Both the position numbers and the translations under genes were made by a program. Shown piece after piece: positions 13,140-33,481 of a DNA stretch of 33,481 bases; position 1 is the first letter of the stretch, and each line of letters opens with the position of its first letter. The notes under the pieces were generated by a model. That model made no database searches and had not been told where the DNA came from. It saw only the letters and a list, made by a program, of their open reading frames with translations. This stretch comes from an uncultured Bacilli bacterium (GTDB lineage Bacteria > Bacillota_I > Bacilli_A > ML615J-28 > CAG-313): the NCBI GenBank assembly GCA_904501965.1, contig CAJGCS010000001.1:1-33481 (forward strand), read 5' to 3'.

Positions 13140-14039
13140 ATGAACAAAATATATGATACACATAGCGATATTTTTCATAATCTTTTTACAAGAAAAGATG
13201 AGGGATGCATAGATCCTTTTGAAAAATATCACTTAGAAAACTTAACAAAAGGAAATATCCAAGGTGGAATTTGGGTAGTTTACGGAGATAAAGATTTTGA
13301 TGTTTATCCTGCATATAAAAAAGCATTAGATGCTTTTGAACCTTATAAAGATAAATATGATGTTATCTATGGATTAGAAGGTTTAAGAAATGTGCATACA
13401 CTTGAAGATTTAAAGAAAATGTATAATTTAGGAATAAGACATGCTAGTCTTACTTGGAACGAGGAAAATCATTTAGCAACTGGTGTTGCAGGTCCTGCCG
13501 AAAGAGGATTAACTGATCTAGGAAAAGAATTTTTAGATTTCATGCAAGAAAATAAAATGATTATTGACGTTTCTCATTTAAATATAAAAAGTTTTTACGA
13601 TGTTTGTGAATATGTAAAAACACCAATTATTGCAAGTCATTCTAATGCATATACACTTTGTAATCATAGAAGAAATTTAAATGACGATCAATTACGAGTG
13701 CTAAAAGAAAAAGGCGGATATGTTGGGGTTGTTTCTGCAAGAAATTTTGTATCACCACAAAATGATAGAAAAACTGTAGCAGGACTTGTAGATCATATTG
13801 AATACATTGCCAATATTATCGGAATCGACCATGTAATGCTTGGCCTTGATATGATGGATTATTTAGATGATTTTAATGATCATAATTCAAACCTTGATGA
13901 TTTAGTAACACATGCCGATGCAAATAATGTTGTTACAGAAATGAGAAAACGAGGCTTTAAAGAAGAAGATATAAATAAAGTAACACATGAAAATTATTTT
14001 GAATTATTAAAGAAAGTAGGAGTTAAAAATGAAAAATAA
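13140..14039 (+). CDS. M19-family (renal-dipeptidase-like) dipeptidase, cytoplasmic
   Basis: N-terminal metal motif DTHSD, plus LTWNEENHLATG, IIDVSHLN and ASHSNA, which are the characteristic M19 amidohydrolase-fold blocks. No signal peptide is present. Confidence 0.8.
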   Translation: MNKIYDTHSDIFHNLFTRKDEGCIDPFEKYHLENLTKGNIQGGIWVVYGDKDFDVYPAYKKALDAFEPYKDKYDVIYGLEGLRNVHTLEDLKKMYNLGIRHASLTWNEENHLATGVAGPAERGLTDLGKEFLDFMQENKMIIDVSHLNIKSFYDVCEYVKTPIIASHSNAYTLCNHRRNLNDDQLRVLKEKGGYVGVVSARNFVSPQNDRKTVAGLVDHIEYIANIIGIDHVMLGLDMMDYLDDFNDHNSNLDDLVTHADANNVVTEMRKRGFKEEDINKVTHENYFELLKKVGVKNEK

Positions 14040-17730: not shown

Positions 17731-17741
17731 TTAAAAATAAG

Positions 17742-17775
17742 TGGTGGTTTTTTATGAAAACCACCATTTTTATTT
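17742..17775 (+). terminator. strong rho-independent terminator
   Basis: TGGTGGTTTT (17742-17751), loop TTATG, then AAAACCACCA (17757-17766), followed by TTTTTATTTTC. Confidence 0.85.
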
Positions 17776-17855: not shown

Positions 17856-17884
17856 TTGAATAAAAACGCTTTCTTTGGTATAAT
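17856..17884 (+). promoter_or_regulatory. sigma-A promoter with extended -10 for the GH20/ABC operon
   Basis: TTGAAT (17856-17861), a 17-nt spacer ending in TGg (17876-17878), then TATAAT (17879-17884). A GAGGTGA RBS precedes the ATG at 17936. The spacer contains a cre-like element, TAAAAACGCTTTCT (17861-17874). Confidence 0.65.
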
Positions 17885-17935: not shown

Positions 17936-19774
17936 ATGTTTAAATCTATTAAAATTGTACCCGTACCAAAAGTATTGAAACTAGAAGATGGGTATTTTAT
18001 TTTGCCTGAAATTGTAACAATTTCTTTCAAAAACTTTGTTAAAGATTTGAATATGTTAAGAGTAATAAAAGCGTTTAGTAAATATTTACCTTCATTCAAA
18101 GTTCAAAACGACTTGTCTTGTGTAAACTTTATTAAAACTGATATTTTAGATAGTGCTTATGAAATCAAAGTAGAAAAAGATCAAATCAATGTTTTTGCAA
18201 GTACTGCATCGGGAATGTTTTACGCTATTCAAACATTAAAACAAATTACTTTTGAAAATAAAGTTAAATGTTGTTATATTAGCGATTACCCTGATTTAAA
18301 AGTCAGAGGGGCAATGCTTGATATAAGTAGAAGTAAAGTTCCTAAGGTAGAAACAATCAAACAGATATTTGATATGCTTGCTTTTTTAAAGTTTAATCAT
18401 GTTGAGTTATATGTTGAAGGATTCTCATATGAATATAAGAGTTTTCCGAATGTCTTAAAAGATGGAAACTATTTAACTGTTGATGAATATAAACTTCTTG
18501 AATCGTATGCGTTTGAAAATTTCTTGGATTTTGTTCCAAATCAAAATGGCTTTGGCCATATGGGTGATTGGCTTCAACTAGATGAGTATAAAGATTTAGC
18601 TGAATGTGTTGACGGATTCACAATCTGGGGTGCATGGCGAAAGACAACAACTTTAAACCCACTTGATGATAGGTCAATTGAACATGTTAAAAAGATGTAT
18701 GCAGATATGATCCCTATTACTAAGTCAAATTATTTCCACATGAATTTTGATGAACCTTATGAGCTTGGACATGGTAAGTCAAAAGAAAAAACTGCTGAGT
18801 CTTCAGTAGAAGATGTATATATTGATTATTTGCATAAACTTTCAAGTGTTGTAAAAGGATATGGAAAAACACCACTTATTTGGGGTGATGTTGTAATTAA
18901 ACATCCCGAAGCAATTAAAAAAATTGATGAAGATATTATCCTAGTCGATTGGGGATACACAAAAACATATCCATTTGAACCACACGCAAAAATGCTTCAT
19001 GAACAAGAAAGAAAGTTCATGTTAGCAGGTGGAACAAGTACTTGGGGAGTTATTACTAGCAGATATCAAGATATGTATGAATCAATTAAAAACTCATGTG
19101 AAAATTCATTTAAATATGGTGGACTTGGTACAATAACTACCGATTGGGGAGATATTGGTCACTTACAATATTTACCTAATTCATATTTGGGATTTATTCA
19201 TGCATCGCTATTTAACTGGAATCAAAGTATTACAGAAGAAGAACATAACGATGTATTTGAAGATGCACTTGAAAAATTTGTTGGTGCTGATGTAAAGGAA
19301 GCTTTATTAAAACTTTCGAGATATACAGAGCTTGAAGGTGAATATAGAGACTATGGAAGTAGATTATTTTATCATATCCTTTGGGCAGAGCACGCACAAA
19401 ATAATGAATCACCACTTGATTTCTTCTTAACAAAGATGAAGAGCAACTATTTAAGTGTTGATTCTCAAAATAAAATATCAGATTTATTAAATGAAGTATA
19501 TGAAAAATTGTTTAAACTAGAAAGCCTTGAAGCAAAAGAATTATTAAATTCAATAAGCTTACTTAAGACTTTACTAGAAATTAATAAAAAGCTTCAAGCT
19601 TCTTGTACTGATTTTAGGAGTGAAATTAGTGCGCTAGATGACTTCGAAGCAAATCATCTTGCTCTTTGGAATAATCGTAACAAAGAAGCAGGTTTTAAAT
19701 TCTCTATTAATCGTATTAAATGGTTAAAACAAATATTAGTTCAAATAGAAATGAAGGGAGACAAAAATGAGTAG
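17936..19774 (+). CDS. GH20-family beta-N-acetylhexosaminidase-like protein, cytoplasmic
   Basis: GH20b N-domain pattern IVPVPKVLKLEDGYFIL...YEIKVEKDQINVFASTASGMFYAIQTLKQI. The catalytic domain has VRGAMLDISRSKVP (compare RGxMLDxxRHF) and a D-E pair in HMNFDEPYELG (compare H(I/L)GGDE). No signal peptide is present. Confidence 0.75.
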   Translation: MFKSIKIVPVPKVLKLEDGYFILPEIVTISFKNFVKDLNMLRVIKAFSKYLPSFKVQNDLSCVNFIKTDILDSAYEIKVEKDQINVFASTASGMFYAIQTLKQITFENKVKCCYISDYPDLKVRGAMLDISRSKVPKVETIKQIFDMLAFLKFNHVELYVEGFSYEYKSFPNVLKDGNYLTVDEYKLLESYAFENFLDFVPNQNGFGHMGDWLQLDEYKDLAECVDGFTIWGAWRKTTTLNPLDDRSIEHVKKMYADMIPITKSNYFHMNFDEPYELGHGKSKEKTAESSVEDVYIDYLHKLSSVVKGYGKTPLIWGDVVIKHPEAIKKIDEDIILVDWGYTKTYPFEPHAKMLHEQERKFMLAGGTSTWGVITSRYQDMYESIKNSCENSFKYGGLGTITTDWGDIGHLQYLPNSYLGFIHASLFNWNQSITEEEHNDVFEDALEKFVGADVKEALLKLSRYTELEGEYRDYGSRLFYHILWAEHAQNNESPLDFFLTKMKSNYLSVDSQNKISDLLNEVYEKLFKLESLEAKELLNSISLLKTLLEINKKLQASCTDFRSEISALDDFEANHLALWNNRNKEAGFKFSINRIKWLKQILVQIEMKGDKNE

Positions 19775-22700
19775 AACTAACTTAAAACACATTAAGCGTA
19801 TATTTACAATCGTTATGGTCGCATGTGCTGGTATCTTAGCCTTCTCTAACTTTAAAGGATTAAATAAAGTTGTTGCAGAAGAAAATCCAGAAATCAGTTT
19901 TGACGATGTATCAACATACGTAGATAATGAATATGATAGTTACTTAGAAGAACAATATTATAATCATGCTGAAAAACAAAAAGAATATACTATTGTTACT
20001 TCTGACATTAATCCTATTAATGCAAGTAACTATCATAAAGAAGGAACAGACATTTATTATAATGGTGATTTTGTTACAATTAAAGCAATTATAAGTAATG
20101 GTTATTTGTTCAAAGAAGAATCAACTTCATATAATTATGATACAGATATATATGAAGTTATTAATATCAATGATATTAATAAAGATGAAGGTGTTTCTTT
20201 AGATTTAATTGCAAGCAAAACAGTTATCTTAAAACAAGATAATGAAGATGGTTCTTCCACTTATTATCGTGAAAATGTAAAACTTGCAAATCTTCAAAAT
20301 GTTAAATTTGACGAAATGCTTCTTCAACAAGATGAAGGTAAAGTTACTTGGGAAGTAGTTGTTCCTAAAGCTGGTTTTTATAACTTAGCTATGAGTTATT
20401 ATCCAATTACAGGTAACAGTTCAAATATTGAAAGAAGTTTAGCAATTAACGGTAAGATTCCATTTGATGGTGCCGACACATTCTCATTCTCAAGAATTTG
20501 GCAAGACCGTGAAAGCTCTTATGAATTTGATGAAAATGGAAATAAAATTGGTTTAAAAACAGACGTTAAAGGAAATGATTTAAAACCTAAACAAGTTGAA
20601 AATCCATATTTAATTTCTTCATATTTTAGAGATGATATGGGATATGTAAATGAACCATATATGTTCTATTTTAATGAAGGTCCAAACTATATTACATTTG
20701 TTTCTGTAAAAGAACCAGTATTAATTGATCAACTAATTCTTGAAGGAAAAACAGTCTATTCAACATGGAAATTTGGAGATATAGATACTAACATTGAAGT
20801 TAACTACAATGATGAAGTTGTTTTCAAAGAAAATATTGTTGTAGAAAACGGACAAGAACGTAAAGTTACTTCATGGTGGATTAATGATAAAGATACAAAA
20901 ATCGAACACAAAGATGTTGAACCAGTTAAAGCATTAAAACAAAAAGGTATTTTAACTTATAAAGAGTATCTTGAATTGCATAAAGATAAAAAGAATGCAA
21001 CTAGTTCACCTGCAAGAATTGAAGCAGAAAATACATTCACAAAATCATCTCCAACACTTTACCCATCAACAGATAGATCAAGTTCACAAACTTATCCATT
21101 CTCATATACTACAACAAAACTTAATGTTATTGGTGGTACAAACTGGCAAGTTTTAGGTGACTGGATCACATGGCAAGTAACAGTTCCAGAAGATGGTTTC
21201 TACAACATTTCAATGCGTGCTAAACAAAATATGGTAAGAGGTATGTACTCAAGCCGTAAAGTTTACATCAATGATGAAATCTTATTCGATGAACTAAATG
21301 ACGTACAATTTAAATACAAAAACAATTGGCAAATCGTTACATTAGGTAATGATACAGAAGACTTCTTATTCTATTTAGAAGCAGGTCAAACTTATACAAT
21401 TAAAATGGAAGTTACTCTTGGACAATATGCACCACTTATCGAAGACTTACAAGTATGTATCGATGAATTAAGTGCAATTTATCGTATGATTATTGCTCAT
21501 ACAACTGTAACTCCTAAAGCTGGTACTGACTACCAACTTAAGAAAAATTTCCCATCACTTGAAAGTGATTTAATTAGAAACCGTGATGAGCTTGTAAGAA
21601 TTTCAAATGAAATTAGTGCAATCTCAGGTGGTAAGAGTGATAAAACAGGTGTAATTGATAACGTAGTTATTCAATTAAAAGACTTCATTAAAGACGTTGA
21701 AATTATTCCTACTCGTCTAAGTACATTTAGTAGTAACGTATCATCACTTGGTACATTACTTAATACATTAAGAGAGTTACCTTTACAACTTGACTGGGTT
21801 TGGGTTCATGCGCCTGAAGAAAAACTTCCAGCCGCAAATGAAAACTTCTTCAGAAAGATTTGGGACTCTGTTGTATCATTCGTTCTTTCATTCTTCCTTG
21901 ACTATTCTTCAATCAGCCAAACTGAAGAACAAGAAATAGTAGGTGAAGTAGTTGATATCGATGTTTGGATGACACTTGGTCGTGACCAAGCAAACGTTAT
22001 CAGAAGTTTGATTGATACGGACTTCGCGAAGAAAAATCCAAATATTCGCGTTGAATTAAAACTAACTGCGGGTGATGTATTATTAAAAGCAACACTTGCA
22101 GGTATTGGGCCAGATGTTGCCTTAAACGTTGATTCATCTTTACCAGTAAACTATGCATTAAGAAATGCAGTTATGGATTTATCAGATCGAATCTATGAAT
22201 ATGAATATAAATTAGAAACAAAAGATGGCAAACTTGCTCTTGGTAAGGATAAATTACCAATCCTTGCTAAAGATTCATCAGGTTCTTATACATATGCTAC
22301 TGATAGTTTAGGTAATAAGGTTATCCAAGCGACTTATTTACTTGCAGAAGATATGAAAAAATCTAGTGATTCATCTTTACCAACAGTTACTGATATTCAA
22401 TTATTTATGAATAGAACTTATCCAACATATTTTGATGCTTTAAGAGAAGAAATTAGATCAAAAGGTGTTGAAGAAAGTGCTGTTGAAAAAGAATTAATAG
22501 TTTTATTAAGCACTGAAGTTGTTATGAAAGCAGGTATGGCAATTCCAACATACTTATATGAATTATATCCTTCAATGTTTAGTGTATTAAGAAATATTGA
22601 CAATTCAAAAATTGTATCTAAACTTGTTAAAGATCAAGACTTCTTAATGATTCCTCAATATACTGATTTTAACTTCTGGGAACAAACAGGTGTTTATAAT

Positions 22701-23765
22701 CATGCAAATAATGTATATATGGAAAGTTCATTAAGACAATTCCAATTCCAATATGATTATAAAGATGGTACTTCAGGTTATGGAACTTATTCACTTCCTG
22801 AAAAACAAATCTTCTTAATGATGTTCGTTCGTGATGATATTATGAATGAACTTGGTTTAACTGAAATGATACCTGATACTTGGGATGAAATGATTGACTT
22901 AATTGCAGAATTACAAACTGACCAATTACAATTCTATCTACCAGTTAACTCTGAAGGTGCATCAGCACTTAACCCAATTTTCGTATCTAAGTTATATCAA
23001 CAAGGTGCAAGCATTTATGCATCTGATAATAGATCTACAGGTTTCAAGAGTGATGAAGCTATGAAAGCATTTGAAGAATGGACAGAATATTACACATTAT
23101 ATTCATTCCCATTAGCTGCTAACTTTACAAACCGTTTCCGTTCTGGTGAACAACCAATCGGTATTTCTTATTATGAATTATATAATACACTAAGTGTATT
23201 TGCTCCTGAGCTTAAAGGTCGTTGGTCATTCCATCAAATTCCTGGTACTCAAAAAGAAATTGAACTAGTAGATGATAATGGCAATAAGACTGGTGAAACA
23301 GTTGAATATATTGACAGAACAGCAGTAGCATCTGGTACAGGTTGTGTTATGATGAGACAATCTGGTGGTTCTGCAAAACATCAACAAGATTCTATGGACG
23401 CTGCTTGGGAATTTATGAAATGGTGGTCTTCAGCTGAAACACAAACTTCATTCGGTCGTGAAATGGAAGGTATCTTAGGTTCAGCAGCAAGACATACTAC
23501 TGCAAACGTTAAAGCATTACAACAACTTGCATGGAAGAAATCTGACCTTACTGTATTAATGCAACAATGGTCTTCAGTACATGAAATTCCACAAATCGCA
23601 GGTAGTTACATTACTGGTCGTGAAATCGAAAATGCATATCGTCAAGTAATTAATAACGGTTATAATCCTCGTGAAGTATTATATGAATATGCAGGAAAAA
23701 TTGATATTGAAATTGATAGAAAACGTCAAGAGTTTGGCTTAAAGATGTCAGGCGAAGGCAATTAA
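19767..23765 (+). CDS. giant (1332-aa) extracellular solute-binding protein with two N-terminal CBM6/35-like beta-sandwich modules fused to a family-1 sugar SBP
   Basis: N-terminal signal/anchor IFTIVMVACAGILAF. CBM-like module 1 lies at about 20300-20760 (KVTWEVVVPKAGFYNLAMSYYP...). CBM-like module 2 lies at about 21010-21425 (ARIEAENTFT...DWITWQVTVPEDGFYNISMRA...YTIKMEV). The SBP fold runs from about 21950 (VDIDVWMTLGRDQANVIRSLI..FAKKNPNIRVELK...GPDVALNV) to the end, with a large insert. A GGGAG RBS is present and the start overlaps the GH20 stop by 8 nt. Confidence 0.75.
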   Translation: MSRTNLKHIKRIFTIVMVACAGILAFSNFKGLNKVVAEENPEISFDDVSTYVDNEYDSYLEEQYYNHAEKQKEYTIVTSDINPINASNYHKEGTDIYYNGDFVTIKAIISNGYLFKEESTSYNYDTDIYEVININDINKDEGVSLDLIASKTVILKQDNEDGSSTYYRENVKLANLQNVKFDEMLLQQDEGKVTWEVVVPKAGFYNLAMSYYPITGNSSNIERSLAINGKIPFDGADTFSFSRIWQDRESSYEFDENGNKIGLKTDVKGNDLKPKQVENPYLISSYFRDDMGYVNEPYMFYFNEGPNYITFVSVKEPVLIDQLILEGKTVYSTWKFGDIDTNIEVNYNDEVVFKENIVVENGQERKVTSWWINDKDTKIEHKDVEPVKALKQKGILTYKEYLELHKDKKNATSSPARIEAENTFTKSSPTLYPSTDRSSSQTYPFSYTTTKLNVIGGTNWQVLGDWITWQVTVPEDGFYNISMRAKQNMVRGMYSSRKVYINDEILFDELNDVQFKYKNNWQIVTLGNDTEDFLFYLEAGQTYTIKMEVTLGQYAPLIEDLQVCIDELSAIYRMIIAHTTVTPKAGTDYQLKKNFPSLESDLIRNRDELVRISNEISAISGGKSDKTGVIDNVVIQLKDFIKDVEIIPTRLSTFSSNVSSLGTLLNTLRELPLQLDWVWVHAPEEKLPAANENFFRKIWDSVVSFVLSFFLDYSSISQTEEQEIVGEVVDIDVWMTLGRDQANVIRSLIDTDFAKKNPNIRVELKLTAGDVLLKATLAGIGPDVALNVDSSLPVNYALRNAVMDLSDRIYEYEYKLETKDGKLALGKDKLPILAKDSSGSYTYATDSLGNKVIQATYLLAEDMKKSSDSSLPTVTDIQLFMNRTYPTYFDALREEIRSKGVEESAVEKELIVLLSTEVVMKAGMAIPTYLYELYPSMFSVLRNIDNSKIVSKLVKDQDFLMIPQYTDFNFWEQTGVYNHANNVYMESSLRQFQFQYDYKDGTSGYGTYSLPEKQIFLMMFVRDDIMNELGLTEMIPDTWDEMIDLIAELQTDQLQFYLPVNSEGASALNPIFVSKLYQQGASIYASDNRSTGFKSDEAMKAFEEWTEYYTLYSFPLAANFTNRFRSGEQPIGISYYELYNTLSVFAPELKGRWSFHQIPGTQKEIELVDDNGNKTGETVEYIDRTAVASGTGCVMMRQSGGSAKHQQDSMDAAWEFMKWWSSAETQTSFGREMEGILGSAARHTTANVKALQQLAWKKSDLTVLMQQWSSVHEIPQIAGSYITGREIENAYRQVINNGYNPREVLYEYAGKIDIEIDRKRQEFGLKMSGEGN

Positions 23766-23779
23766 TAAGGAGGAATAAA

Positions 23780-25144
23780 ATGGATATAGCATTATATATT
23801 ATATTTGGTATTTCAGTTGTTGCATTAGCAGTTTTATTCTTCTTTGTATTAAAAGGAGCTAAGAAAAAAACTGGTGGTTTCCAAAAAGAAATCAAAGCTC
23901 CTAAAGTTAAAAAACCTGAAAAATCTCGTGAAGAAAAAGCACGAGAAAAAGCAGAATTAAAAGCTGCAATGAAAGTTAAAAGAGCTGAATGGAAAGCTGA
24001 AGATAAAATATTCGATGATAAGTGCAAAGCTAATATTGTTGAGTTCAAAAAAGAAGTTAAAGAGAAAAAACCTCGTTACTTAGAACTTAAAAAAGCATAT
24101 CATGAAACAGTTAAATCTAAGAAAAATGATCAAGCAATTATTGATGAATATGTAGCTTATAGTAAAGAATATGAACGCTTACTTCAAAAGTTAAGAATCG
24201 AAAAAGATCGTATTTCTTTAATCAAGAAAGTTGATAGATGGAGTAAACGTGGAGGCAAATTAAGAAGGGAAATATTCGTTAAGAGACAATATTACTATTT
24301 AGTAGCTCCTTATACAATTTTATTCTTCATATTTACTGTTTTACCAGTTTTAATGTCTTTAGTATTAAGTTTCACAAACTTCAACTTACTTGAATTCCCA
24401 GACTGGGTTGGATGGGATAACTACATGCAATTATTCGTTAACGATAAAGTATTTATTATCGCTCTTCGTAATACTGCATTACTTGCTGTTGTAACTGGTC
24501 CACTTAGTTATATTATGGCATTCGTATTCGCATGGCTAATTAATGAATTAAAACCTCTTCTAAGAAGTTTCATGACATTAATCTTCTATGCTCCATCTAT
24601 TTCAGGTAACGTATACTTAATCTGGAAATTAATTTTCTCAAGTGATATTTATGGTTATGCTAATGCATACTTAATTCAATTTGGTATCATTGATGAACCA
24701 ATCACTTGGTTACAAGATTCAACATATATTATTTGGATCTTAATTATCGTACAATTATGGTTATCACTTGGTGTAAGTTTCTTATCATTCATCGCTGGTT
24801 TACAAAGTGTTGATAGAATTTACTACGAAGCTGGTGCTATCGATGGTATTAAAAACCGTTGGCAAGAATTATGGTACATAACTCTTCCACAAATGAAATC
24901 ACAATTATTATTCGGTGCCGTAATGCAAATTACATCGAGTTTGTCGGTAGCTGCGGTATCAATAAATATCGCCGGATTCCCGTCAATCGAGTATGCCGGA
25001 CACACAATTATTACTCACTTAATGGACTTCGGTAACCTAAGAATGGAAATGGGTTATGCGTCTGCAATTGCAACTATCTTATTCATTATCATGATTGTTG
25101 CAAATATGTTAGTAAGAAAAATTTTAAGAAGGATAGGTTCATAG
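23780..25144 (+). CDS. carbohydrate ABC transporter permease (MalF/CUT1-like) with a 170-aa N-terminal extension
   Basis: AGGAGG RBS. The core from about aa 171 has 6 TM segments and the EAA-type loop YYEAGAIDGIKNRWQELWYITLPQM. It is preceded by an extra TM helix (aa 4-24) and about 145 aa of Lys/Glu-rich helical sequence. Confidence 0.85.
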   Translation: MDIALYIIFGISVVALAVLFFFVLKGAKKKTGGFQKEIKAPKVKKPEKSREEKAREKAELKAAMKVKRAEWKAEDKIFDDKCKANIVEFKKEVKEKKPRYLELKKAYHETVKSKKNDQAIIDEYVAYSKEYERLLQKLRIEKDRISLIKKVDRWSKRGGKLRREIFVKRQYYYLVAPYTILFFIFTVLPVLMSLVLSFTNFNLLEFPDWVGWDNYMQLFVNDKVFIIALRNTALLAVVTGPLSYIMAFVFAWLINELKPLLRSFMTLIFYAPSISGNVYLIWKLIFSSDIYGYANAYLIQFGIIDEPITWLQDSTYIIWILIIVQLWLSLGVSFLSFIAGLQSVDRIYYEAGAIDGIKNRWQELWYITLPQMKSQLLFGAVMQITSSLSVAAVSINIAGFPSIEYAGHTIITHLMDFGNLRMEMGYASAIATILFIIMIVANMLVRKILRRIGS

Positions 25145-25145
25145 T

Positions 25146-26171
25146 ATGGCTTTAGGTAAAATTAAAGTAGATGACGATCAATTAGCTGGTGTTCAACTGT
25201 CTAAGGCTGAAAAGAAACGCCTTCGTCGTCAAGAAAAGAAATTAAAGAAGTATGGTATTAGAGACGAAAGTAAAATGAATAAAGTAGAAAAATTCTTCTA
25301 CAATATTCAAAAACGTCGTCGTATTAAAAAACGTAAACGTGTTAGCCGAAGCTTTATCGGTGATGCTGCACTATTCTTATTACTATGTGCTTTCGGTGCA
25401 TTCAGTGCTTATCCGCTTGTATATACAATTTTTGCAGCTTTTAAACCACTTGCAGAATTATTTATTTATCCACCTAAACTATTCGTAATGAATCCAACAC
25501 TTGATAACTTCAGTGACTTATCTAACCTTTTATCAGATTCATGGGTACCGTTTAGTAGATATTTATTTAACACAGTATTTATTACACTTGGTGGTACAGT
25601 TGGTCACGTGCTTATTGCATCAATGGCTGCTTATCCACTTGCAAAACACAAATTCCCAGGAAGCGTGTTTATTTTCCAAATGGTTGTTTATTCATTAATG
25701 TTCGCAGGTCAAGTAACAGATACTCCAAGATACATGATTTTCAGTTTCTTAGGATTAGTTGATACTCCGCTTGCAATTATCGTTCCAGCCTTTGCTTATT
25801 CACTTGGTTTATACTTAATGAAGCAGTTTATGAGTGATATTCCAACAGAGCTAATTGAATCAGCTAAGATTGACGGTGCGAATGAATTCCAAATTTATTG
25901 GAAAATCGTTATGCCACTAGTTAAACCAGCATGGTTAACATTAATTATCTTATTATTCCAAAACTTATGGAATACAGATGGTGGTACATTCATTTATAGT
26001 GAAGCTAAGAAACCTTTAAGTTATGCGTTACACCAAATCGTTGCTGGTGGTATCGCAAGAACAGGTACTTCAGCTGCAGTTATGCTAATTATGATGGCAG
26101 TGCCAATTACAGTATTTATCTTGTCACAAAGTCAAATCATTGAAACAATGGCACACTCAGGTATGAAATAG
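25146..26171 (+). CDS. carbohydrate ABC transporter permease (MalG/CUT1-like) with a ~68-aa Arg/Lys-rich N-terminal extension
   Basis: EAA loop ESAKIDGANEFQIYWKIVMPLVKP and 6 TM segments. The N-terminus contains KAEKKRLRRQEKKLKKYG...QKRRRIKKRKRVSRS. It starts 2 nt after the previous stop. Confidence 0.85.
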   Translation: MALGKIKVDDDQLAGVQLSKAEKKRLRRQEKKLKKYGIRDESKMNKVEKFFYNIQKRRRIKKRKRVSRSFIGDAALFLLLCAFGAFSAYPLVYTIFAAFKPLAELFIYPPKLFVMNPTLDNFSDLSNLLSDSWVPFSRYLFNTVFITLGGTVGHVLIASMAAYPLAKHKFPGSVFIFQMVVYSLMFAGQVTDTPRYMIFSFLGLVDTPLAIIVPAFAYSLGLYLMKQFMSDIPTELIESAKIDGANEFQIYWKIVMPLVKPAWLTLIILLFQNLWNTDGGTFIYSEAKKPLSYALHQIVAGGIARTGTSAAVMLIMMAVPITVFILSQSQIIETMAHSGMK

Positions 26172-26189
26172 GAAATAGAGGTTAGAGTT

Positions 26190-29100
26190 ATGAGAAAAAT
26201 GAAAAATTTATTTAAAACATTAACAATCATCGCTTTAGTCTTTGGTTTCTTCTTTGCACCAATCTTTGGTAGTGCTAAAGCAATGAGTTATAACTATGAT
26301 TTCTGGAAAAATATTATTCCTTCTGCTGAAGGTATTGCTCATAAAGATACTTTCTATTCTGAAAATATTGAATATTACAAAAATGATGAATATGAACTTA
26401 AAGTAGAACAATTAAATAAACTATTAGATGATTTATCATTAAGTGATATTAAAGAGGTTGTATCAAAACCTAATTATAAAGAAATCACAGCTGATGATTA
26501 TAACAATGCAATTATTGCAATTGATGCAAAAGACTTAAATGATGAGACAAAAATAAATCTTAAAATCTTAATTAATCTGAAAAAAGAATACGAAGCTGAT
26601 CCAAACTTATATAAATCAATAAGCTTTAATACAATTACTGATATTCAAGTTTATGGAGATTATTTATATGTTTTATCAACTCCTACAGCAATGGACATTT
26701 CAAACGTTACTGGTACTGCAAGAGTTGCAGAACTTACTCAATTAATCATTATCAATAAAGAAATGAAATGGGAAACATGCATTAATGAATTTGAAATTAC
26801 AGAAAATGTAAGAGATTCGTTTGATGATTATTATCAATGGAATAGACTTAGTTTCTCTTCTGTTGCAACTGGTAAAAACCATACAGTTGCTGTAGATACA
26901 TCAGGAAATATTTGGGCATGGGGCTCAAATGAATATGGTCAAATTGGTATTGACCCATCAGTAGAAACTTATGTTGCAGAGCCTAAACAAATCACTTGGA
27001 TAGGTGATAAAAATGCAAGAGCATACACAAAAGTATTTGCTACAGATTACGCAACATTCGCTCTTGATTCAAATAATAATTTATGGGCATTTGGTAAAAA
27101 TGAAAATCATTTAATTTCAGGTGAACAAAATGAAGATTTTTATCAACATGAATTAATTAATATTGAATTAAAAGATACTATTGATGAAAATAACCCAGAA
27201 ACAGAAGTTACTGGTACTGTAAAAGTAGTAAGTGTTGCTGATGACCACATTTTCGTAATTGATAGCGAAAGCCGTGTGTGGGCATGGGGTGACAATAGTG
27301 ATAGATTACTTCAAGTTGAAAAAATTACAGAAGACATTGTTAAATCACCAAAACTTACAACTATTAATTTAACAAGAGAAGATAAATATAATCTTGATTC
27401 AGCAGGTAACCCTACAATAATCAAATTAAAACCAGTTGATATTCAAGCTGGTCAAAACCATACTGTAATTGTTGATGATGAAGCATCACTTTGGGCATGG
27501 GGATCAAATGATTATGGTCAACTTGGTTTAGGAGATTTTGTAAAAAGAACTGTTCCTACATTAGTTGAATTAAAGAAAAATAATGTTAAGGTTGGTGTAG
27601 CTTCAATTGCCGTTGGTCAAAACCATACAGCTCTTGTAGACAAACTTGGTGGTTTATGGGCATTTGGTTCAAATAGTCACTGTCAAATTGGTTTAAGTAC
27701 AGAAGATGGACTTACATTTGCACAACCATATGCATATTTCCATAAAAACATCGAATATACAAAAGTATTTGCTTTTGGAAATACAACATATGCAATTGAT
27801 ATGTCATATCAATCATATGTATTTGGTCAAAATGATCATTATCAATTAGGCTTTGTTGAAGAGGGAAAAGATTCAAGTCAATTACCTTATTCAATTAATC
27901 CAAATAATGTTTCATTAACATTTGTTGCTAACAGTGGTGATGCTACATTCGGTATTGACTCTTCAAATCGTTTATGGATTTGGGGTACAAGTGATACTAA
28001 ATTAGGATTTGGTTCAACAGAAGATATTAAAAATCCTAAATATAGTGACACAAGATTAGAATTAAATAATATTGCTATTGGCCGTTTAGAAAATTCAGAT
28101 ATTTATAAACGTGCAATCTATGTTGCTCATTCAAAAGATGAAACAAAACCTGCAGTTTACTTAAGAAGTGCTGCTGGTATCGCAGTAGATGAAAACTTCA
28201 TTTACATTGCAGACACACAAAATTCAAGAATTTTAAAAATTAATAAACTTACATATGTTGTTGAAGATGTTTGCTTAACTCCAGCAAATACAACATTCAA
28301 ACAATTAAATTTAGACTCAACTGTTCTACAAGCCGTTTCTCTTCGTCAATTTAAACCTACTAAAATTACAGTGTCTCCTACAGGTAGAGTTTATGCAATT
28401 GCAGAACAAGTTTACGAAGGTATTATTGAGTTTAATAAACAAGGTGATTATAACCGTTACTTAGGACAAAACGATGTTGTTGCAAATCCGCTTAAAGAAA
28501 TGCTTCGTGATTATTTAACTGAAGAACAACTTGCATCATTTGCCTTAACACTTCCACCACTATTTACAAGTATTAGTACAGATAGTAAAGGGTTCATTTA
28601 TGCGACATCTTACCCTGATACAGAATCTGGTTCTATTGCTGGTCAAAACATGGTTAAAGCAATTAATACATCTGGTAAAGACTGTATGAAACGTAATGGT
28701 TATGTAGCACCAAATGGTGATGCTGTTTATATTTCATCATCACAAAATTCTAAAGCAATTTTAGGCCCATCATATTTAGTTGACGTTGCAGTTAATAAAG
28801 ATGGTAACTTCACTGTTGTAGATGAAGTAAGAGGTCGTTTATTTACATATGACCTTGATGGTAACTTATTATATATCGCTGGTGATCAACCAGGTGGTAC
28901 AAAACAAAATGCATCAGGTTTATCTGAAAATATTATTAAACCAGTTGCAATTGATTATATGTATCGTACTTATACAAATGCTGATGGCGAAGAAATCAAT
29001 GACCAATTAATCATTGTTGCTGACCAACAATCTAAGAGCTTAATGTATTACGAAACTACAGAATTTGGACGTTTAGTAAATGAAGCTACTGGAGCTTATA

Positions 29101-29495
29101 ACCGTGGTGTTGATACTCGTGAAGAAGCAATTGCGGTTAGAGTTATTTGGGAAGAAGTTCGTCAAAGAAATACTAACTATGAATTAGCATACTTAGGTAT
29201 TGGTAAATGTATTTTAGTTGAAAGTGACTATGTTGAAGGTAAAACTGCAAAAGATATCACAAATGAACAATTAAAACTTTACCAAGAAGCTATGAAAAAC
29301 TTTAGACTTGCTCACTCTGGTACTTATTATTCAAAAGCATTTGGACGTTATCGTGACCAAATCTTAAGTGATAACTTCAGTTGGATTATGACAGCTGCTG
29401 TTATTATTGCAGTTGGTGCCGCAGGATGGTTTGTTTACAAAACTATCAAAGCAAAACAAGCTAAAAAAATTAAAGTGCAAGGAGGAAGTAAGTAA
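26190..29495 (+). CDS. surface protein with a seven-blade RCC1-repeat propeller plus an NHL-like propeller, a signal peptide and a C-terminal TM anchor
   Basis: Signal peptide ...IFGSAKA/MS. Seven RCC1-type blade signatures lie between about 26860 and 28030: WAWGSNEYGQIG, WAFGKNENHLISG, WAWGDNSDRLLQ, WAWGSNDYGQLGLG, WAFGSNSHCQIGL, YVFGQNDHYQLGF and WIWGTSDTKLGFG, several preceded by G(K/Q)NHT(V/A). NHL-like blades lie at about 28170-29060 (AGIAVDENFIYIADTQNSRILKI, PTKITVSPTGRVYAI, VDVAVNKDGNFTVVDEVRGRLFTYDLDGNLL, LIIVADQQSKSLMYY). The C-terminal TM WIMTAAVIIAVGAAGWFVY is followed by KTIKAKQAKKIK. Confidence 0.8.
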   Translation: MRKMKNLFKTLTIIALVFGFFFAPIFGSAKAMSYNYDFWKNIIPSAEGIAHKDTFYSENIEYYKNDEYELKVEQLNKLLDDLSLSDIKEVVSKPNYKEITADDYNNAIIAIDAKDLNDETKINLKILINLKKEYEADPNLYKSISFNTITDIQVYGDYLYVLSTPTAMDISNVTGTARVAELTQLIIINKEMKWETCINEFEITENVRDSFDDYYQWNRLSFSSVATGKNHTVAVDTSGNIWAWGSNEYGQIGIDPSVETYVAEPKQITWIGDKNARAYTKVFATDYATFALDSNNNLWAFGKNENHLISGEQNEDFYQHELINIELKDTIDENNPETEVTGTVKVVSVADDHIFVIDSESRVWAWGDNSDRLLQVEKITEDIVKSPKLTTINLTREDKYNLDSAGNPTIIKLKPVDIQAGQNHTVIVDDEASLWAWGSNDYGQLGLGDFVKRTVPTLVELKKNNVKVGVASIAVGQNHTALVDKLGGLWAFGSNSHCQIGLSTEDGLTFAQPYAYFHKNIEYTKVFAFGNTTYAIDMSYQSYVFGQNDHYQLGFVEEGKDSSQLPYSINPNNVSLTFVANSGDATFGIDSSNRLWIWGTSDTKLGFGSTEDIKNPKYSDTRLELNNIAIGRLENSDIYKRAIYVAHSKDETKPAVYLRSAAGIAVDENFIYIADTQNSRILKINKLTYVVEDVCLTPANTTFKQLNLDSTVLQAVSLRQFKPTKITVSPTGRVYAIAEQVYEGIIEFNKQGDYNRYLGQNDVVANPLKEMLRDYLTEEQLASFALTLPPLFTSISTDSKGFIYATSYPDTESGSIAGQNMVKAINTSGKDCMKRNGYVAPNGDAVYISSSQNSKAILGPSYLVDVAVNKDGNFTVVDEVRGRLFTYDLDGNLLYIAGDQPGGTKQNASGLSENIIKPVAIDYMYRTYTNADGEEINDQLIIVADQQSKSLMYYETTEFGRLVNEATGAYNRGVDTREEAIAVRVIWEEVRQRNTNYELAYLGIGKCILVESDYVEGKTAKDITNEQLKLYQEAMKNFRLAHSGTYYSKAFGRYRDQILSDNFSWIMTAAVIIAVGAAGWFVYKTIKAKQAKKIKVQGGSK

Positions 29496-30265
29496 TGATT
29501 TTAGAAGTTAAAATTATCTTAATTGCTCTTACAATCCTTGCTATTGCTGGTGTTGTTGGGCTAATCGTTGGTCTTGCAACTGGCAAACAAGAACTATGTT
29601 TAAAAATAGCAAAAGCTATTAAAGCAAAAATTGTTCAATTTTATAACGATGTTATTAAATTTCCAATTTACATCATTACACACCCAGTTCAAGGGTTTAA
29701 TGAATTTAAAGTTGAGAAAAAAGGTAAGATGTATGCAGCATTATCAATTCTTGCATTCTACATCTTAGTTCAAATCTTAACACCAAACTATGAAGGTGGA
29801 ACAACAAACGTTGCAAACCCAATGAATTTTAACAGTTTAAAAATTGTTGTATTTGGTGTTGTTCCTGTTATCTTAATCGCAGTTGCTAACTGGAGTATCA
29901 CATCATTATTTGATGGTAAAGGTAAAATGAAAGAAATCTTTATGATGATTTGTTACTGTTACTTCCCATTAGCAGTTTGTGGTTTATTAAGATTAATCGT
30001 TAGTAACTTTGTTACATCAGATGAAGTATTATTCTTAACTATTATTGATATAGTCGGTCTGTTTGGAACGGGTTATATGTTATTTATGGGGCTTGTCGTA
30101 ATTCATGAATACGGAGTATTTAAAACTATTATTTCAGTAATTGGTACTGTTGTTGCAATATTAATTATCTTATTCTTAGCATTATTAATATTCGACCTTG
30201 CTAACCAAGTATTTAGTTTCTTTAGCTCAATATTCAAAGAAATTATGGTAAGATTCATGTCGTAA
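29495..30265 (+). CDS. Yip1-family polytopic membrane protein
   Basis: The start shares one base with the preceding stop (TAATG), and a GGAGGAAG RBS is present. An N-terminal TM is followed by HPVQGFNEFKVEKKGKMYAALSILAFYILVQIL, which matches the HPxxGFxxLKxExKG pattern I associate with bacterial YIP1-family proteins. Four more TM helices follow. Confidence 0.65.
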   Translation: MILEVKIILIALTILAIAGVVGLIVGLATGKQELCLKIAKAIKAKIVQFYNDVIKFPIYIITHPVQGFNEFKVEKKGKMYAALSILAFYILVQILTPNYEGGTTNVANPMNFNSLKIVVFGVVPVILIAVANWSITSLFDGKGKMKEIFMMICYCYFPLAVCGLLRLIVSNFVTSDEVLFLTIIDIVGLFGTGYMLFMGLVVIHEYGVFKTIISVIGTVVAILIILFLALLIFDLANQVFSFFSSIFKEIMVRFMS

Positions 30266-30282: not shown

Positions 30283-33200
30283 ATGATAGTTATTCTTATT
30301 ACAGCAATTATAATTACAATTGTGGTGCTTCTTGCAAAACGCCGCAATAAAAAACAAAAAGAAGAACAACCAAAAGAAGTTGAAGTAGTTGTTCAAAAAG
30401 ATTCAAAAGAAGTTTTAGACGAAAAAGAATCAATTAAAAAAGCTGAAGAAATTGTAAGAAGAAGAAAAAGATATAATCGTATTCTTAAATTATCTCTTAC
30501 AGTAATCTTACTTGCAGCTATTGAAATTGTTGCTGGTATCTTCTTCTTCGATACATACAAAGCAAACAGTGCTTCATTCCATAATGCTACTTCAAAAGAA
30601 TATTGGAATACTCTTCCTGGTTTTGAACATTATGATAAATTATATGAAAAGTATGTTGAAACTGTAGATATTAATAGTGCTAAATATGTTAGCCCATTTG
30701 ATTATTCAGAGTCTATTTATGTTAACATCAAAAAAGCACGTTATCAAGAAGAATTAGATCTTCTTATAACACCATATAAAAATGAATTAAGAACTACAAA
30801 AGATGAAGATAGAAAACTAGAACTTGAAAAAATCATTGATGAAGCCGACCTTCATAAATCAACTCTTTCTCCTCTTAAAGATTATAAAGTAAAAGAAGCT
30901 TTATCATACAAAAAAGTAGCTGAAAATGATGGTTATGAATTTTGGTTACATATGGGTCTTACAACATTTAAAGTTGTAGACAAAGTAAATGGTACAGTTT
31001 GGTATTCAAATCCAGAAACTTACTCTACTGATAAAGAAGATGCTCAAAAAGACATCTTAAAAATTTGGTACAGTAGAACAGGATCTAATTCAGTAAGTTT
31101 TGGTACATATGATTATTCAACATCAACATCATTTAGAGGAAGTACAAAAGACGTTAATCCAAACTTTGCAGTAAAAGTTATTACTGAAGAAGTGGGCGGA
31201 AAAGATGTATCTACAATTCAAGTATGGTACAAATTAGAAGAACGTGGTGTTAACTGGACATATTTCCCTAAATACATTAGTAAAGCAACATTTGATGCTT
31301 TAGTAGCTGAAAATGCTCGTTTAGTAGCTGAAGGTGCTCAATATGATGATAATGGCACATTAAAAGATGTTACTGACATCACTACTTCAAAATTCGATAA
31401 AAAAGATGCTGTTACAATGGTCGAAAGAGTATTTACAAGTCCTGCAGCTGACTATAAACTTATCTCTAAAGATAGTGTATTAAATCAATTTGGAGAAGAT
31501 TATTATGAATATAATAGTAATCTTGAAAAAATGAATGACTTAGCATTAAACCGTTTATATATGCTTTACACACACTGTGGTTTTACTCTAGATAAATTAG
31601 AAGAAGAAAATGATTATTTCCAATCTATTTCTGATGAAAAAGGATTAGGACTTACAGTAAGTAATGTTACTCATTCAAATGCATCATTTACTGTTGCAAT
31701 TCAATACCAATTAACAGAAGATGGATTAAATGTTACTATTCCAGGTAATTCAATTTCTGAAAATGGTGAAAACTTAGTTGTTTATATCGACTTACTTGAA
31801 TACTTCACTGCTGCTCGAATTACAGAAGATGGTTACACAATTATCCCTGATGGAAGTGGTGCTGTATTAAATCATAATAATGGTAAGACTAATAACCTTC
31901 CATACAATAAGCGATTATATACAACAGACCTTTCAATGACAGAAGAAGTTATGAAAGCTTCTACTGAAGATATCATGTTACCAATGTATGCCGTAGTTAA
32001 TACTACAAGTAAATCAGCTGTTATTGCCGATGTAATCGATGGTGCAGCTCAAATGGAATTATATGCGGACATTTCTGGACGTGGTAATGAAACTCATAAT
32101 AGAAACTACTTTAGAATTCATTATCATGAATCTCAAGTTGTTAAAGTTTCATCTGTAATGCAACCAATTGATAAATATAATAATTTATTCATGAATAACG
32201 ATATTTCAGTTGACTTCCGTTTCTATGGAGCTGATGTTGTTGAAGATGGATATTCTGGTATTGCTCATGCATATCGTGATTTATTAGTTAAACGTTACGG
32301 TATGCAAAACAAAAAAGATACAACTGATGATTTAGTAATCGATATTGATGTTCTTGGTTCTTATAACTTTAAAAACAATGTATTTGGTATTGTTTATAAC
32401 GATAAAGAAACATTAACAACATATGAAGAATTACAAAAGATGATCACTGATATCGAATCAAAACAATTTAAGAATATTAACATATTCTATAAAGGATGGA
32501 GAGATACTACTTTAGTTAATACTTCATTCAAAAATATCAAAGCTTATAATGCCTTAGGTAAATTAAGCAAACTTGCAGAAATTGAAGATATGGAAGGCGT
32601 AAATGTTTATCCTTATATTAATTTCGGTCAAATTAATAAATATCAAGAATCATTTGGTAGCTATCACTACAATACAAGAAACGTAATCGGTGAAATTATT
32701 ACAATCTATCCTTATGACTTACAATCAAATATATGGAATAAGAAAGCTCAAAAGATTAATATTCTTTCTCCTCGTTACTATGAAGCATTTGCTCAATCAC
32801 TTGCAGATAGTTATTCAAGTGTGTTCAAAATTGGTAAGAAAAATGAAGTTCTTACAAATATCTCAGTTGATTCTCTAGGTTCAGTATTAACTGGTGACTA
32901 TCAAAAGAATCAAGAAATGTTTAAGATTAATGCTGTATACGAACAAATTAAGGCTCTAGAAGTTATTAAAAATGCTGGTATCACAAACATTAACTTATAC
33001 AAACCTTATGACTATGCATTCCCTTATGTTTCTAATGCAAAAGAAATCCCTTACGAATCTACACATTATGAAATTCTTAACTATTCAATTCCATTCTATC
33101 AATTAGTTGTAAATGGATTATTCGATTATAGTGGAGAAAGTATTAATGCTAACAGCGAAGAAGGTGTTAAATATCATATCTTAAGAATGTTAGAAACTGG

Positions 33201-33480
33201 TTCAAATGCATCATTCACATTCACTCATGATGGTTCAGAAGTATTATTAAAAACTGATTACAACCAATACTACTATACTGAATATTCATTATGGTTAGAA
33301 GAAGTTGCTAAAGTTTATAATGAAATTTCTTCTACTGGAGTTAGTGGATTAAGACTTGTAAAACATGAATTCATTAAAGAAGGTGTTTCATTAGTAACAT
33401 ATGCTTCAGAAGATGGTGCAAAACAAGTTCAAATCTTAATTAACAATACATTTACAGATTATGTAGACTCAGAAACAGGA
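30283..33480 (+). CDS. large membrane-anchored protein, DUF5696-like (3' end outside the window; not in the supplied ORF track)
   Basis: My manual translation of frame 1 from the ATG at 30283 (AAGGAGGGA RBS 9 nt upstream) is open for 1066 codons to the window end. The N-terminus is TM1 (IVILITAIIITIVVLL), a charged loop (KRRNKKQKEEQPKE...RRRKRYNR), then TM2 (LSLTVILLAAIEIVAGIFFF). A large extracytoplasmic domain follows, with motifs such as YTIIPDGSGAVLN (31843-31863 = IPDGSGA), LPMYAVV and NINLYKPYDYAFPY. The family assignment is from memory of DUF5696 proteins and is unverified. Confidence 0.75.
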   Translation, partial: MIVILITAIIITIVVLLAKRRNKKQKEEQPKEVEVVVQKDSKEVLDEKESIKKAEEIVRRRKRYNRILKLSLTVILLAAIEIVAGIFFFDTYKANSASFHNATSKEYWNTLPGFEHYDKLYEKYVETVDINSAKYVSPFDYSESIYVNIKKARYQEELDLLITPYKNELRTTKDEDRKLELEKIIDEADLHKSTLSPLKDYKVKEALSYKKVAENDGYEFWLHMGLTTFKVVDKVNGTVWYSNPETYSTDKEDAQKDILKIWYSRTGSNSVSFGTYDYSTSTSFRGSTKDVNPNFAVKVITEEVGGKDVSTIQVWYKLEERGVNWTYFPKYISKATFDALVAENARLVAEGAQYDDNGTLKDVTDITTSKFDKKDAVTMVERVFTSPAADYKLISKDSVLNQFGEDYYEYNSNLEKMNDLALNRLYMLYTHCGFTLDKLEEENDYFQSISDEKGLGLTVSNVTHSNASFTVAIQYQLTEDGLNVTIPGNSISENGENLVVYIDLLEYFTAARITEDGYTIIPDGSGAVLNHNNGKTNNLPYNKRLYTTDLSMTEEVMKASTEDIMLPMYAVVNTTSKSAVIADVIDGAAQMELYADISGRGNETHNRNYFRIHYHESQVVKVSSVMQPIDKYNNLFMNNDISVDFRFYGADVVEDGYSGIAHAYRDLLVKRYGMQNKKDTTDDLVIDIDVLGSYNFKNNVFGIVYNDKETLTTYEELQKMITDIESKQFKNINIFYKGWRDTTLVNTSFKNIKAYNALGKLSKLAEIEDMEGVNVYPYINFGQINKYQESFGSYHYNTRNVIGEIITIYPYDLQSNIWNKKAQKINILSPRYYEAFAQSLADSYSSVFKIGKKNEVLTNISVDSLGSVLTGDYQKNQEMFKINAVYEQIKALEVIKNAGITNINLYKPYDYAFPYVSNAKEIPYESTHYEILNYSIPFYQLVVNGLFDYSGESINANSEEGVKYHILRMLETGSNASFTFTHDGSEVLLKTDYNQYYYTEYSLWLEEVAKVYNEISSTGVSGLRLVKHEFIKEGVSLVTYASEDGAKQVQILINNTFTDYVDSETG

Positions 33481-33481
33481 A

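Follow-up and report, generated by a model that had tools for sequence, protein, structure and literature searches.

In a 33,481-nucleotide stretch of DNA from an uncultured Bacilli bacterium (contig CAJGCS010000001.1; hereafter, the window), the gene at 26190-29495 lies inside an ABC transporter operon and encodes a protein in which a complete RCC1-like propeller is inserted between the first two blades of an NHL-type propeller. We hold this architecture and insertion history with high confidence. Overall, the explanation that we favour, with moderate confidence, is an accessory scaffold that carries an RCC1 insertion and that would also serve in ligand capture. The parts of the protein are as follows.

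26190-29495, + strand: whole open reading frame (1101 residues, ATG start), a candidate NHL/TPR accessory protein with an RCC1 insert
26190-26282, + strand: residues 1-31, predicted N-terminal signal peptide or anchor (hydrophobic residues 6-32, 'SAKA|MS'; model helix 2-32, then low predicted local distance difference test (pLDDT) scores at residues 24-44)
26283-26372, + strand: residues 32-61, conserved motif SYNYDFWKN.IPS.EG and beta-strand 49-56 (alignments, model)
26373-26615, + strand: residues 62-142, clade-specific four-helix insert at a second insertion hot spot (model helices 63-135)
26616-26837, + strand: residues 143-216, NHL blade 1, including ITDIQVYGDYLYVLS, and helix 205-215 (family alignment; model strands 149-203)
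26838-28064, + strand: residues 217-625, inserted RCC1-like propeller, predicted seven-bladed (Pfam, model, Foldseek; absent from orthologues)
28065-29060, + strand: residues 626-957, NHL-type blades 2-6 (Pfam NHL, model strand groups, orthologue model, family profile)
29061-29369, + strand: residues 958-1060, TPR-like helical stalk (NTNYELAYLGIGK ... YYSKA..YRD; model helices 958-1040; TPR in relatives)
29370-29492, + strand: residues 1061-1101, predicted transmembrane helix and basic cytoplasmic tail (hydropathy, model)

Three Pfam models matched the protein: WD40_RLD (E = 2.1e-89, residues 220-570, 300.9 bits against a cut-off of 150), RCC1_2 (E = 3.9e-32, 109.7 bits, cut-off 22) and RCC1 (E = 1.7e-30, 105.7 bits, cut-off 21.7). 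The AlphaFold2 model of the whole protein, built from a 65-sequence alignment (mean pLDDT 85.6, predicted template modelling score 0.76), contains 28 strands in seven sets of four between residues 222 and 618, mostly at pLDDT above 90, together with two hairpins beyond the RCC1 blade plan (residues 327-342 and 394-413). Foldseek on the model aligned this part with UVR8 over about 405 columns (target-normalised template modelling score (TM-score) 0.83-0.84, E = 1e-25), and other matches were RCC1, the RCC1-like domain (RLD) of HERC2, and RPGR. A closed seven-bladed propeller of four-stranded blades is thus predicted. An initial annotation, made from the sequence alone, had described seven well-formed RCC1 blades and given positions for their motifs. 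A motif scan bore out its coordinates, with blade motifs at residues 242, 299, 364, 435, 490, 542 and 596 (nucleotides 26913, 27084, 27279, 27492, 27657 and 27975; the motif at residue 542 is degenerate); the model likewise has seven blades, but the full W.WG.N..GQ.G signature occurs in only three of the seven, so 'well-formed' was generous.

The solved RLDs of UVR8, human RCC1 and HERC2 (Pfam PF25390/PF00415) share with this segment the seven four-stranded blades, the W.WG.N..GQLG motif and the closed propeller. Unlike them, it is predicted to be extracytoplasmic, is inserted into another propeller and has the two extra hairpins; it is 15-22% identical to any solved RLD and has no GTPase or chromatin context. 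Because of the predicted extracytoplasmic location, guanine-nucleotide exchange or binding of Ran or chromatin is implausible. The expectation that RCC1-repeat proteins are uncommon in bacteria was not borne out: 890 of 8000 candidates scored gave matches at E<=1e-5, many of them large proteins, secreted or on the surface, from Bacteroidota, Myxococcota, Planctomycetota and Firmicutes.

The blade-coding DNA does contain the dispersed motif that the initial annotation had noticed (TGGGCWTKKGG, five occurrences against 0.02 expected, every one in RCC1 blades). It encodes W-A-W/F-G, mirroring the protein repeat at the codon level, and does not constitute a DNA element in its own right. The best pair of DNA repeats is 92% identical across 38 nucleotides and the remaining pairs 63-79%. 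One such pair is too little to make the repeats a recombination substrate or an element of their own, and no alleles with a changed blade number were seen; the suggestion that they could support recombination was dropped.

We then turn to the scaffold that surrounds the insert. Pfam NHL matched residues 658-683 (33 bits, cut-off 20), and among PDB sequences a family profile matched the NHL sensor domain of PknD (E = 2.5e-10) and the Pizza designed propellers (about 1e-14). Ahead of the insert, the ITDIQVYGDYLYVLS stretch can be aligned to a blade of canonical NHL type (DLFV..DG.IYV.DSGNNRIV) found in Paenibacillus, Clostridia and other members of the wider family, which identifies the pre-insert segment as blade 1 and puts the insertion point between it and blade 2. 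A blade-like stretch had been suspected at this place, and this alignment makes it a real blade. The companion statement that four to six NHL-like blades follow the RCC1 domain was not quite accurate: in the model, five blade-like strand groups come after the insert and at least one precedes it.

Foldseek on the whole model reported the RCC1 part only, and hence the scaffold was assessed with a model of an RCC1-less orthologue, P0193 (pLDDT 76.9). This model matched the six-bladed NHL propellers of TRIM3 and TRIM71 (target-normalised TM-score 0.68-0.73, 448 columns), as well as Brat and YncE. From these comparisons we infer that the scaffold may form one closed NHL-type propeller of six or seven blades, the pre-insert blade included. 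In the model of the target itself, strands lie at residues 49-56, 149-203, the seven RCC1 sets of four at 222-618, and 654-695, 723-758, 792-825, 863-897 and 918-956, and helices at 2-32, 63-135 (four), 205-215, 958-1040 and, as one long helix, 1044-1092. Strand 49-56 probably closes the propeller in this model, and Y34 and Y36 of the N-terminal motif are invariant, the wider family included. In the stalk region, relatives have Pfam TPR matches, and matches to CTPR in the PDB sequence search were weak.

Hydropathy revealed only two strongly hydrophobic segments, at residues 6-32 and 1063-1084, and the N-terminus runs from an RKMK n-region through an h-region to the SAKA|MS sequence. The topology read from these features is predicted to be type I, with the N-terminus and body extracytoplasmic, a single transmembrane helix and a short basic tail inside; signal-peptide cleavage at the putative site and surface exposure are plausible. 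Pfam, the model, hydropathy and gene order together uphold the description of a membrane-anchored double propeller within an ABC transporter operon, the anchoring being predicted.

The relatives of the scaffold bear on two further readings of its role. It could be an enzyme, a six-bladed hydrolase or lyase of the SGL/lactonase/PAL type acting before import, with RCC1 as a substrate-positioning appendage. Relatives have weak Pfam SGL matches and some were named 'gluconolactonase' at source, and many D/N/R/E/Y blade residues are invariant across family members that are only 30% identical; yet those SGL matches are sub-threshold, the target itself has no Pfam SGL match at E<=0.01, and no sequence match to a solved enzyme appeared, the top matches being the PknD sensor and the TRIM/Brat binding propellers. 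We consider an enzymatic role unlikely. Alternatively, the protein could be a sensor, its propeller detecting an extracellular ligand and gating or regulating the transporter through the transmembrane helix and the Yip1-domain protein encoded next to it, in the manner of PknD. The target has the NHL signature and overall fold in common with PknD of Mycobacterium tuberculosis (1rwi) and the TRIM/Brat NHL domains, and shares with PknD, its closest solved sequence relative, the extracytoplasmic location and single-transmembrane anchoring; its single-pass topology and pairing with a polytopic membrane protein would also suit a sensor. Its differences from this group are the lack of a kinase, the TPR-like stalk after the propeller, the pairing with or fusion to Yip1, and loops that are insertion hot spots. 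No kinase, HAMP, GGDEF or DNA-binding output domain is present, the cytoplasmic tail is about 17 residues long, and regulation in these loci is encoded separately, by LacI/GntR or two-component genes, all of which make a sensor very unlikely. A PknD-type kinase sensor in particular was rejected, as Pfam gave no Pkinase match in the target.

The accessory scaffold that we favour received its RCC1 propeller by insertion, and the clearest evidence comes from orthologues without it. A search with the full-length protein was swamped by generic RCC1 matches: only 17 other proteins, all from metagenome assemblies, had the full architecture (53-87% identity), and all further matches covered the RCC1 part alone at 23-31% identity. 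None of them identified a donor of the domain, the best RCC1 matches outside the family being only 24-31% identical. When the search was repeated with residues 1-205 joined to 626-1101, hundreds of RCC1-less relatives of about 590-700 residues were recovered (39-42% identity, 95-100% coverage), along with forms of about 1000 residues that end in a C-terminal Yip1 domain. In orthologues that occupy the same place in the operon, target residues ~217-625 fall in a clean gap, and both flanks align and are conserved. These alignments and the homology of blade 1 support the suggestion of an RCC1 propeller inserted into an NHL-type one.

The site is variable across the family. Between Y215 and Y644 the loop measures 24-37, 108-136, 163-178, 216-219, 293 or 397-456 residues; the longest class holds RCC1, and the class of 216-219 holds the Flg_new repeats of P0244. 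At the second site (target residues 56-151), most members have 15-32 residues, the RCC1 clade has 94-108 (the helical bundle), and P0228 has 367, including a Lamin-tail (LTD) domain. As judged from the alignments, both loops are empty or hold other modules (~110-300 residues; Flg_new; Lamin-tail) in sister lineages. Two of these modules can be placed, the LTD domain within residues 50-416 of P0228, at the N-terminal hot spot, and the Flg_new (Listeria-Bacteroides) repeats within residues 198-413 of P0244, at the main one. For the module of ~110-136 residues found in gut forms fused to Yip1, P0142 among them, Pfam gave no match. In integrins, the alpha I-domain binds ligand and sits as an insertion between blades of a beta-propeller, and the arrangement here is alike in that a whole, separately folding binding module would be plugged between two blades of a host propeller; the two are unrelated in sequence and fold, and the likeness is one of analogy only.

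The insert is confined to one lineage. It is present in one of 28 GTDB species loci ('Bacilli bacterium' SGB_2885); these loci come from uncultured gut 'Bacilli', 'Mollicutes', Acholeplasmataceae, Anaeroplasma, Erysipelotrichaceae and 'Staphylococcus sp. CAG:324', which we take to be Mollicutes-related gut Bacilli such as RF39. In a neighbour-joining tree computed from scaffold-only columns, all 18 RCC1 carriers fall in a single clade, a pattern that fits one acquisition. With carriers limited to these 18 protein clusters, monophyletic and represented in one locus of 28, the orthologue comparison makes the RCC1 insert lineage-specific. Recent horizontal acquisition was ruled out by G+C content at third codon positions (0.12 in the insert versus 0.145-0.153 in the scaffold): the insert matches the scaffold and is therefore not a recent foreign arrival.

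We computed the ratio of nonsynonymous to synonymous substitution rates (dN/dS) against the two closest alleles, L036 and L037 (values in that order). RCC1 gave 0.36 and 0.35 and the helical insert 0.28 and 0.42; values were lower in scaffold blades 2-6 (0.10 and 0.18), the TPR part (0.12 and 0.18), Yip1 (0.08 and 0.13) and the permease (0.02 and 0.035). Among the 18 carriers, invariant positions make up 16% of RCC1 and 44-55% of the scaffold; those of RCC1 are structural (W.WG.N, GQ, H and D), and the loops vary. The RCC1 insert is under purifying selection and evolves faster than the scaffold. Faster change with structural residues kept indicates an insert that is maintained yet much freer to vary, as expected of an exposed binding surface.

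The same data decide against a functionless passenger or an assembly chimera. RCC1 is indeed the least conserved part of the protein, but its frame is intact in 18 clusters diverged to 53% identity, with the same junctions in independent ENA and Logan assemblies, its dN/dS is about 0.35, its structural motifs are conserved and its fold is confidently predicted. This reading is largely refuted, and we give it almost no weight; an assembly artefact was rejected on the shared junctions.

Synonymous divergence (dS) is uneven along the operon from 25146 to 30262; against L037 it is 0.14 in permease 2, 0.58 in Yip1 and 0.78 in RCC1, and exceeds 1 in some scaffold segments. The pattern points to a mosaic produced by recombination, or to a permease whose codons are under strong constraint. 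Recombination of this kind would also suit loop inserts, RCC1 included, that are adhesin or antigen modules under host, phage or immune pressure, with the scaffold as a display platform and the inserts outside transport. The insert dN/dS of ~2-3.6 times that of the scaffold, the 15-16% invariant positions, and the swapped modules Flg_new and LTD, typical of surface proteins, point the same way. Insert class is, on the other hand, stable within clades, operon linkage is strict, and dN/dS is well below 1, which leaves no gene-wide signal of positive selection. We regard adhesin or antigen modules as improbable, and return to the accessory scaffold and its place beside the transporter. The other genes of its operon are listed below.

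17936-19774, + strand: GH20 beta-N-acetylhexosaminidase, very probably the first gene of the transcription unit (Pfam)
19767-23765, + strand: giant solute-binding protein, 1332 residues (SBP_bac_8 on residues 996-1231 only)
23780-25144 and 25146-26171, + strand: two BPD_transp_1 ABC permeases (Pfam)
29495-30265, + strand: Yip1-domain membrane protein (Pfam; its start overlaps the target stop, TAATG)
30283-33481, + strand: DUF5696 protein with an N-terminal transmembrane segment, continuing past the window end (E = 1.8e-119)

Spacers between the genes from GH20 to DUF5696 are 0-18 nucleotides, a GGAGG lies just upstream of the Yip1 start, and a promoter-like site with an extended -10 lies ahead of the GH20 gene (17856-17884), after a strong terminator with a 14-bp stem (17739-17769) that follows the third GHL10 gene. 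No convincing terminator was found from that promoter-like site to the window end. Given the short spacers, the TAATG stop/start overlap and the lack of an internal terminator, GH20 through DUF5696 very probably form one transcription unit.

The order GHL10, GH20, solute-binding protein, permease, permease, scaffold, Yip1, DUF5696 was recovered by tblastn in 25 of 25 GTDB loci that span the region; three loci on truncated contigs (L024, L030 and L031) keep it for the genes present, and eight annotated metagenome or genome contexts hold the same block. Downstream of DUF5696, the orthologous loci encode a further pair of permeases, a membrane protein of the DUF624 type, one or two NAGPA-family proteins (phosphodiester glycosidase) and sometimes GH3, as read from L001 17481-23249, L003 16201-21788 and L033 16118-21587. 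In four distant contexts (Paenibacillus spongiae CP091430 at about 5.07-5.09 Mb, Bacillus sp. FJAT-28004, a Clostridia metagenome-assembled genome and Halanaerobiales), all four have a large solute-binding protein (~975-1000 residues), two permeases, an NHL/TPR protein, Yip1-fused or not, DUF5696 and two permeases, with a small solute-binding protein on one side and GH20, GH123, or GH38 and GH85 as neighbours. The solute-binding protein is unusually large in all relatives of the module (973-1275 residues). The 25 spanning loci and the four distant contexts thus tie the target gene to the transporter, as had been proposed, and it is not a sporadic passenger.

The target belongs to an NHL/TPR-Yip1 family by homology across its propeller, TPR and transmembrane regions and by its position between the permease pair and Yip1/DUF5696. 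The family profile recovered 1070 representative clusters at E<=1e-30, and members consist of NHL, TPR and a transmembrane segment alone (~480-510 residues) or are fused to Yip1 (~685-730 residues; NCBI 'YIP1 family protein'). This recurrent fusion is Rosetta-stone evidence that the target works with the 29495-30265 product. Paenibacillus and Bacillus have an uncharacterised 'YIP1 family protein' (NHL, TPR, transmembrane segment and Yip1, ~685-700 residues) whose propeller, TPR and transmembrane regions are ~31-34% identical to those of P0193 and which occupies the same operon position as the target, between permease pairs and next to DUF5696; unlike the target, it lacks the RCC1 and helical inserts, has a shorter N-terminal region and is fused to Yip1. 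In the P0008 lineage a 46-residue open reading frame lies between the target orthologue and Yip1 (L001 13253-13393, L002 3552-3692), and the window Yip1 protein starts with an extra N-terminal hydrophobic segment (residues 1-32); either may be a remnant of fission or fusion of the two genes.

The arrangement can be put together as follows. The scaffold (N-terminal strand, NHL blade 1, five NHL-type blades, TPR-like stalk and transmembrane helix) is the predicted extracytoplasmic partner of a Yip1-family membrane protein, and the pair is a fixed part of a Firmicutes-wide block that ends in two more permeases followed by a small solute-binding protein or DUF624. In a small clade of uncultured gut Bacilli, a complete RCC1-like propeller entered the blade 1-2 loop of the scaffold and a helical bundle a second loop. 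As to function, we propose that scaffold and Yip1 may together serve a composite, binding-protein-dependent glycan importer as its accessory or organising subunit, and the loop inserts, RCC1 included, would be exchangeable extracellular surfaces for ligand capture, keeping a captured glycan or glycoconjugate that contains N-acetylglucosamine (GlcNAc) near GH20, DUF5696 and the binding protein. The capture role of RCC1 and the other loop inserts is tentative, and we place it slightly short of an even chance. A direct role of the target in sugar uptake is likewise tentative.

An experimental precedent is found in YknW, a Yip1-family protein of Bacillus subtilis that modulates assembly of the YknXYZ ABC transporter (PMC4887032), the sole such precedent that we found for a bacterial Yip1 protein. 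Like YknW in YknWXYZ, the Yip1-domain membrane protein here is encoded with an ABC transporter, on which YknW is known to act (PMC4887032). YknWXYZ itself is an exporter of the MacB type and includes a membrane-fusion protein, whereas the present system has importer-type, binding-protein-dependent permeases, and its Yip1 protein, unlike YknW, carries or partners a large ectodomain.

Several observations weigh against the proposal. DSSP strings and Foldseek scores are the source for closure of the scaffold and its blade count (6 or 7). Conservation of the scaffold is very strong and many of its D/N/R residues are invariant, which could equally mean catalysis or a tight protein interface. We identified no sugar-binding motif in the RCC1 domain, and RCC1-like domains are known chiefly as protein-protein interaction modules. 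The operon does have the importer features of a solute-binding protein and two BPD_transp_1 permeases, but an ABC ATPase (ABC_tran) gene was found neither in the window nor in any of the annotated contexts; in Firmicutes, sugar importers are often energised by a shared MsmX/MsmK ATPase whose gene lies elsewhere.

The window has a G+C content of ~30%, with all genes on the + strand from 3816 onward. Upstream of the transcription unit are genes for a LacI regulator, three GHL10 proteins, an M19 dipeptidase, a PIG-L deacetylase, a GNAT protein and a beta-lactamase-family protein. No NCBIfam model matched the target, Yip1, the giant solute-binding protein or DUF5696, and the PDB sequence search gave no meaningful match for DUF5696 or the giant solute-binding protein, whose N-terminal ~990 residues have weak CBM35 and Golvesin_C matches only. 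Permease 1 starts (23780-24300) with a transmembrane segment and ~150 Lys/Glu-rich residues before the core, its Pfam match beginning at residue 243, and permease 2 (25146-25370) has a Lys/Arg-rich N-terminal extension of ~75 residues; permease 1 is 452-617 residues long in gut-Bacilli loci versus 298-324 in Paenibacillus, Bacillus, Clostridia and Halanaerobiales. Two of the GHL10 proteins (10446-13025 and 14029-16461) end, at 12921-13022 and 16351-16458, in a Pro/Asn/Gln-rich linker, 'GCSC(S/A)S', a hydrophobic helix and 'RKNK/RKNRG'. These ends match MYXO-CTERM below threshold (E 0.035-0.07, 13.6-14.5 bits, cut-off 20); by their sequence they look like a sorting signal and may represent an undescribed sorting tag in these Bacilli. 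A stand-alone 454-residue open reading frame at 534-1898 contains 'NHIVLDIYG', which resembles by eye the HHxxxDG of condensation/acyltransferase domains.

As to substrate, the neighbours GH20, GH85, GH38, GH123 and NAGPA suggest glycans that are rich in GlcNAc or of the N-glycan type, and the combination of NAGPA, GH20 and PIG-L deacetylase hints at substrates that contain GlcNAc-1-phosphate or are rich in GlcNAc. The module of NHL/TPR-Yip1, DUF5696 and double permeases appears unstudied: a full-text literature search for DUF5696 found no paper, and searches on Yip1/ABC transporter/NHL and on YIP1 family protein/permease/glycoside hydrolase returned nothing relevant.

The RCC1 insertion offers a clean natural case of a whole propeller plugged into a loop of another, at a site that is a hot spot for lineage-wise swapping of extracellular modules; the folds themselves are known, and domain insertion is a known evolutionary mode. 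More broadly, and as a possibility that we doubt more than we credit, the arrangement 'large SBP - 2 permeases - NHL/TPR-Yip1 - DUF5696 - 2 permeases (+ small SBP or DUF624)', where SBP is a solute-binding protein, may be an unrecognised class of multi-component machine for glycan capture and import, functionally like Sus-like systems, in which NHL/TPR-Yip1 would act as a membrane hub, its two loops as plug-in sites, and the RCC1, Flg_new, LTD and ~120-residue modules would retarget substrates. Family members occur in cultivable Paenibacillus and Bacillus as well as in abundant uncultured gut Bacilli, and the cultivable carriers make the idea genetically testable. If the module does take part in glycan import as an accessory, the usual account of ABC sugar uptake in Gram-positive bacteria would gain components.

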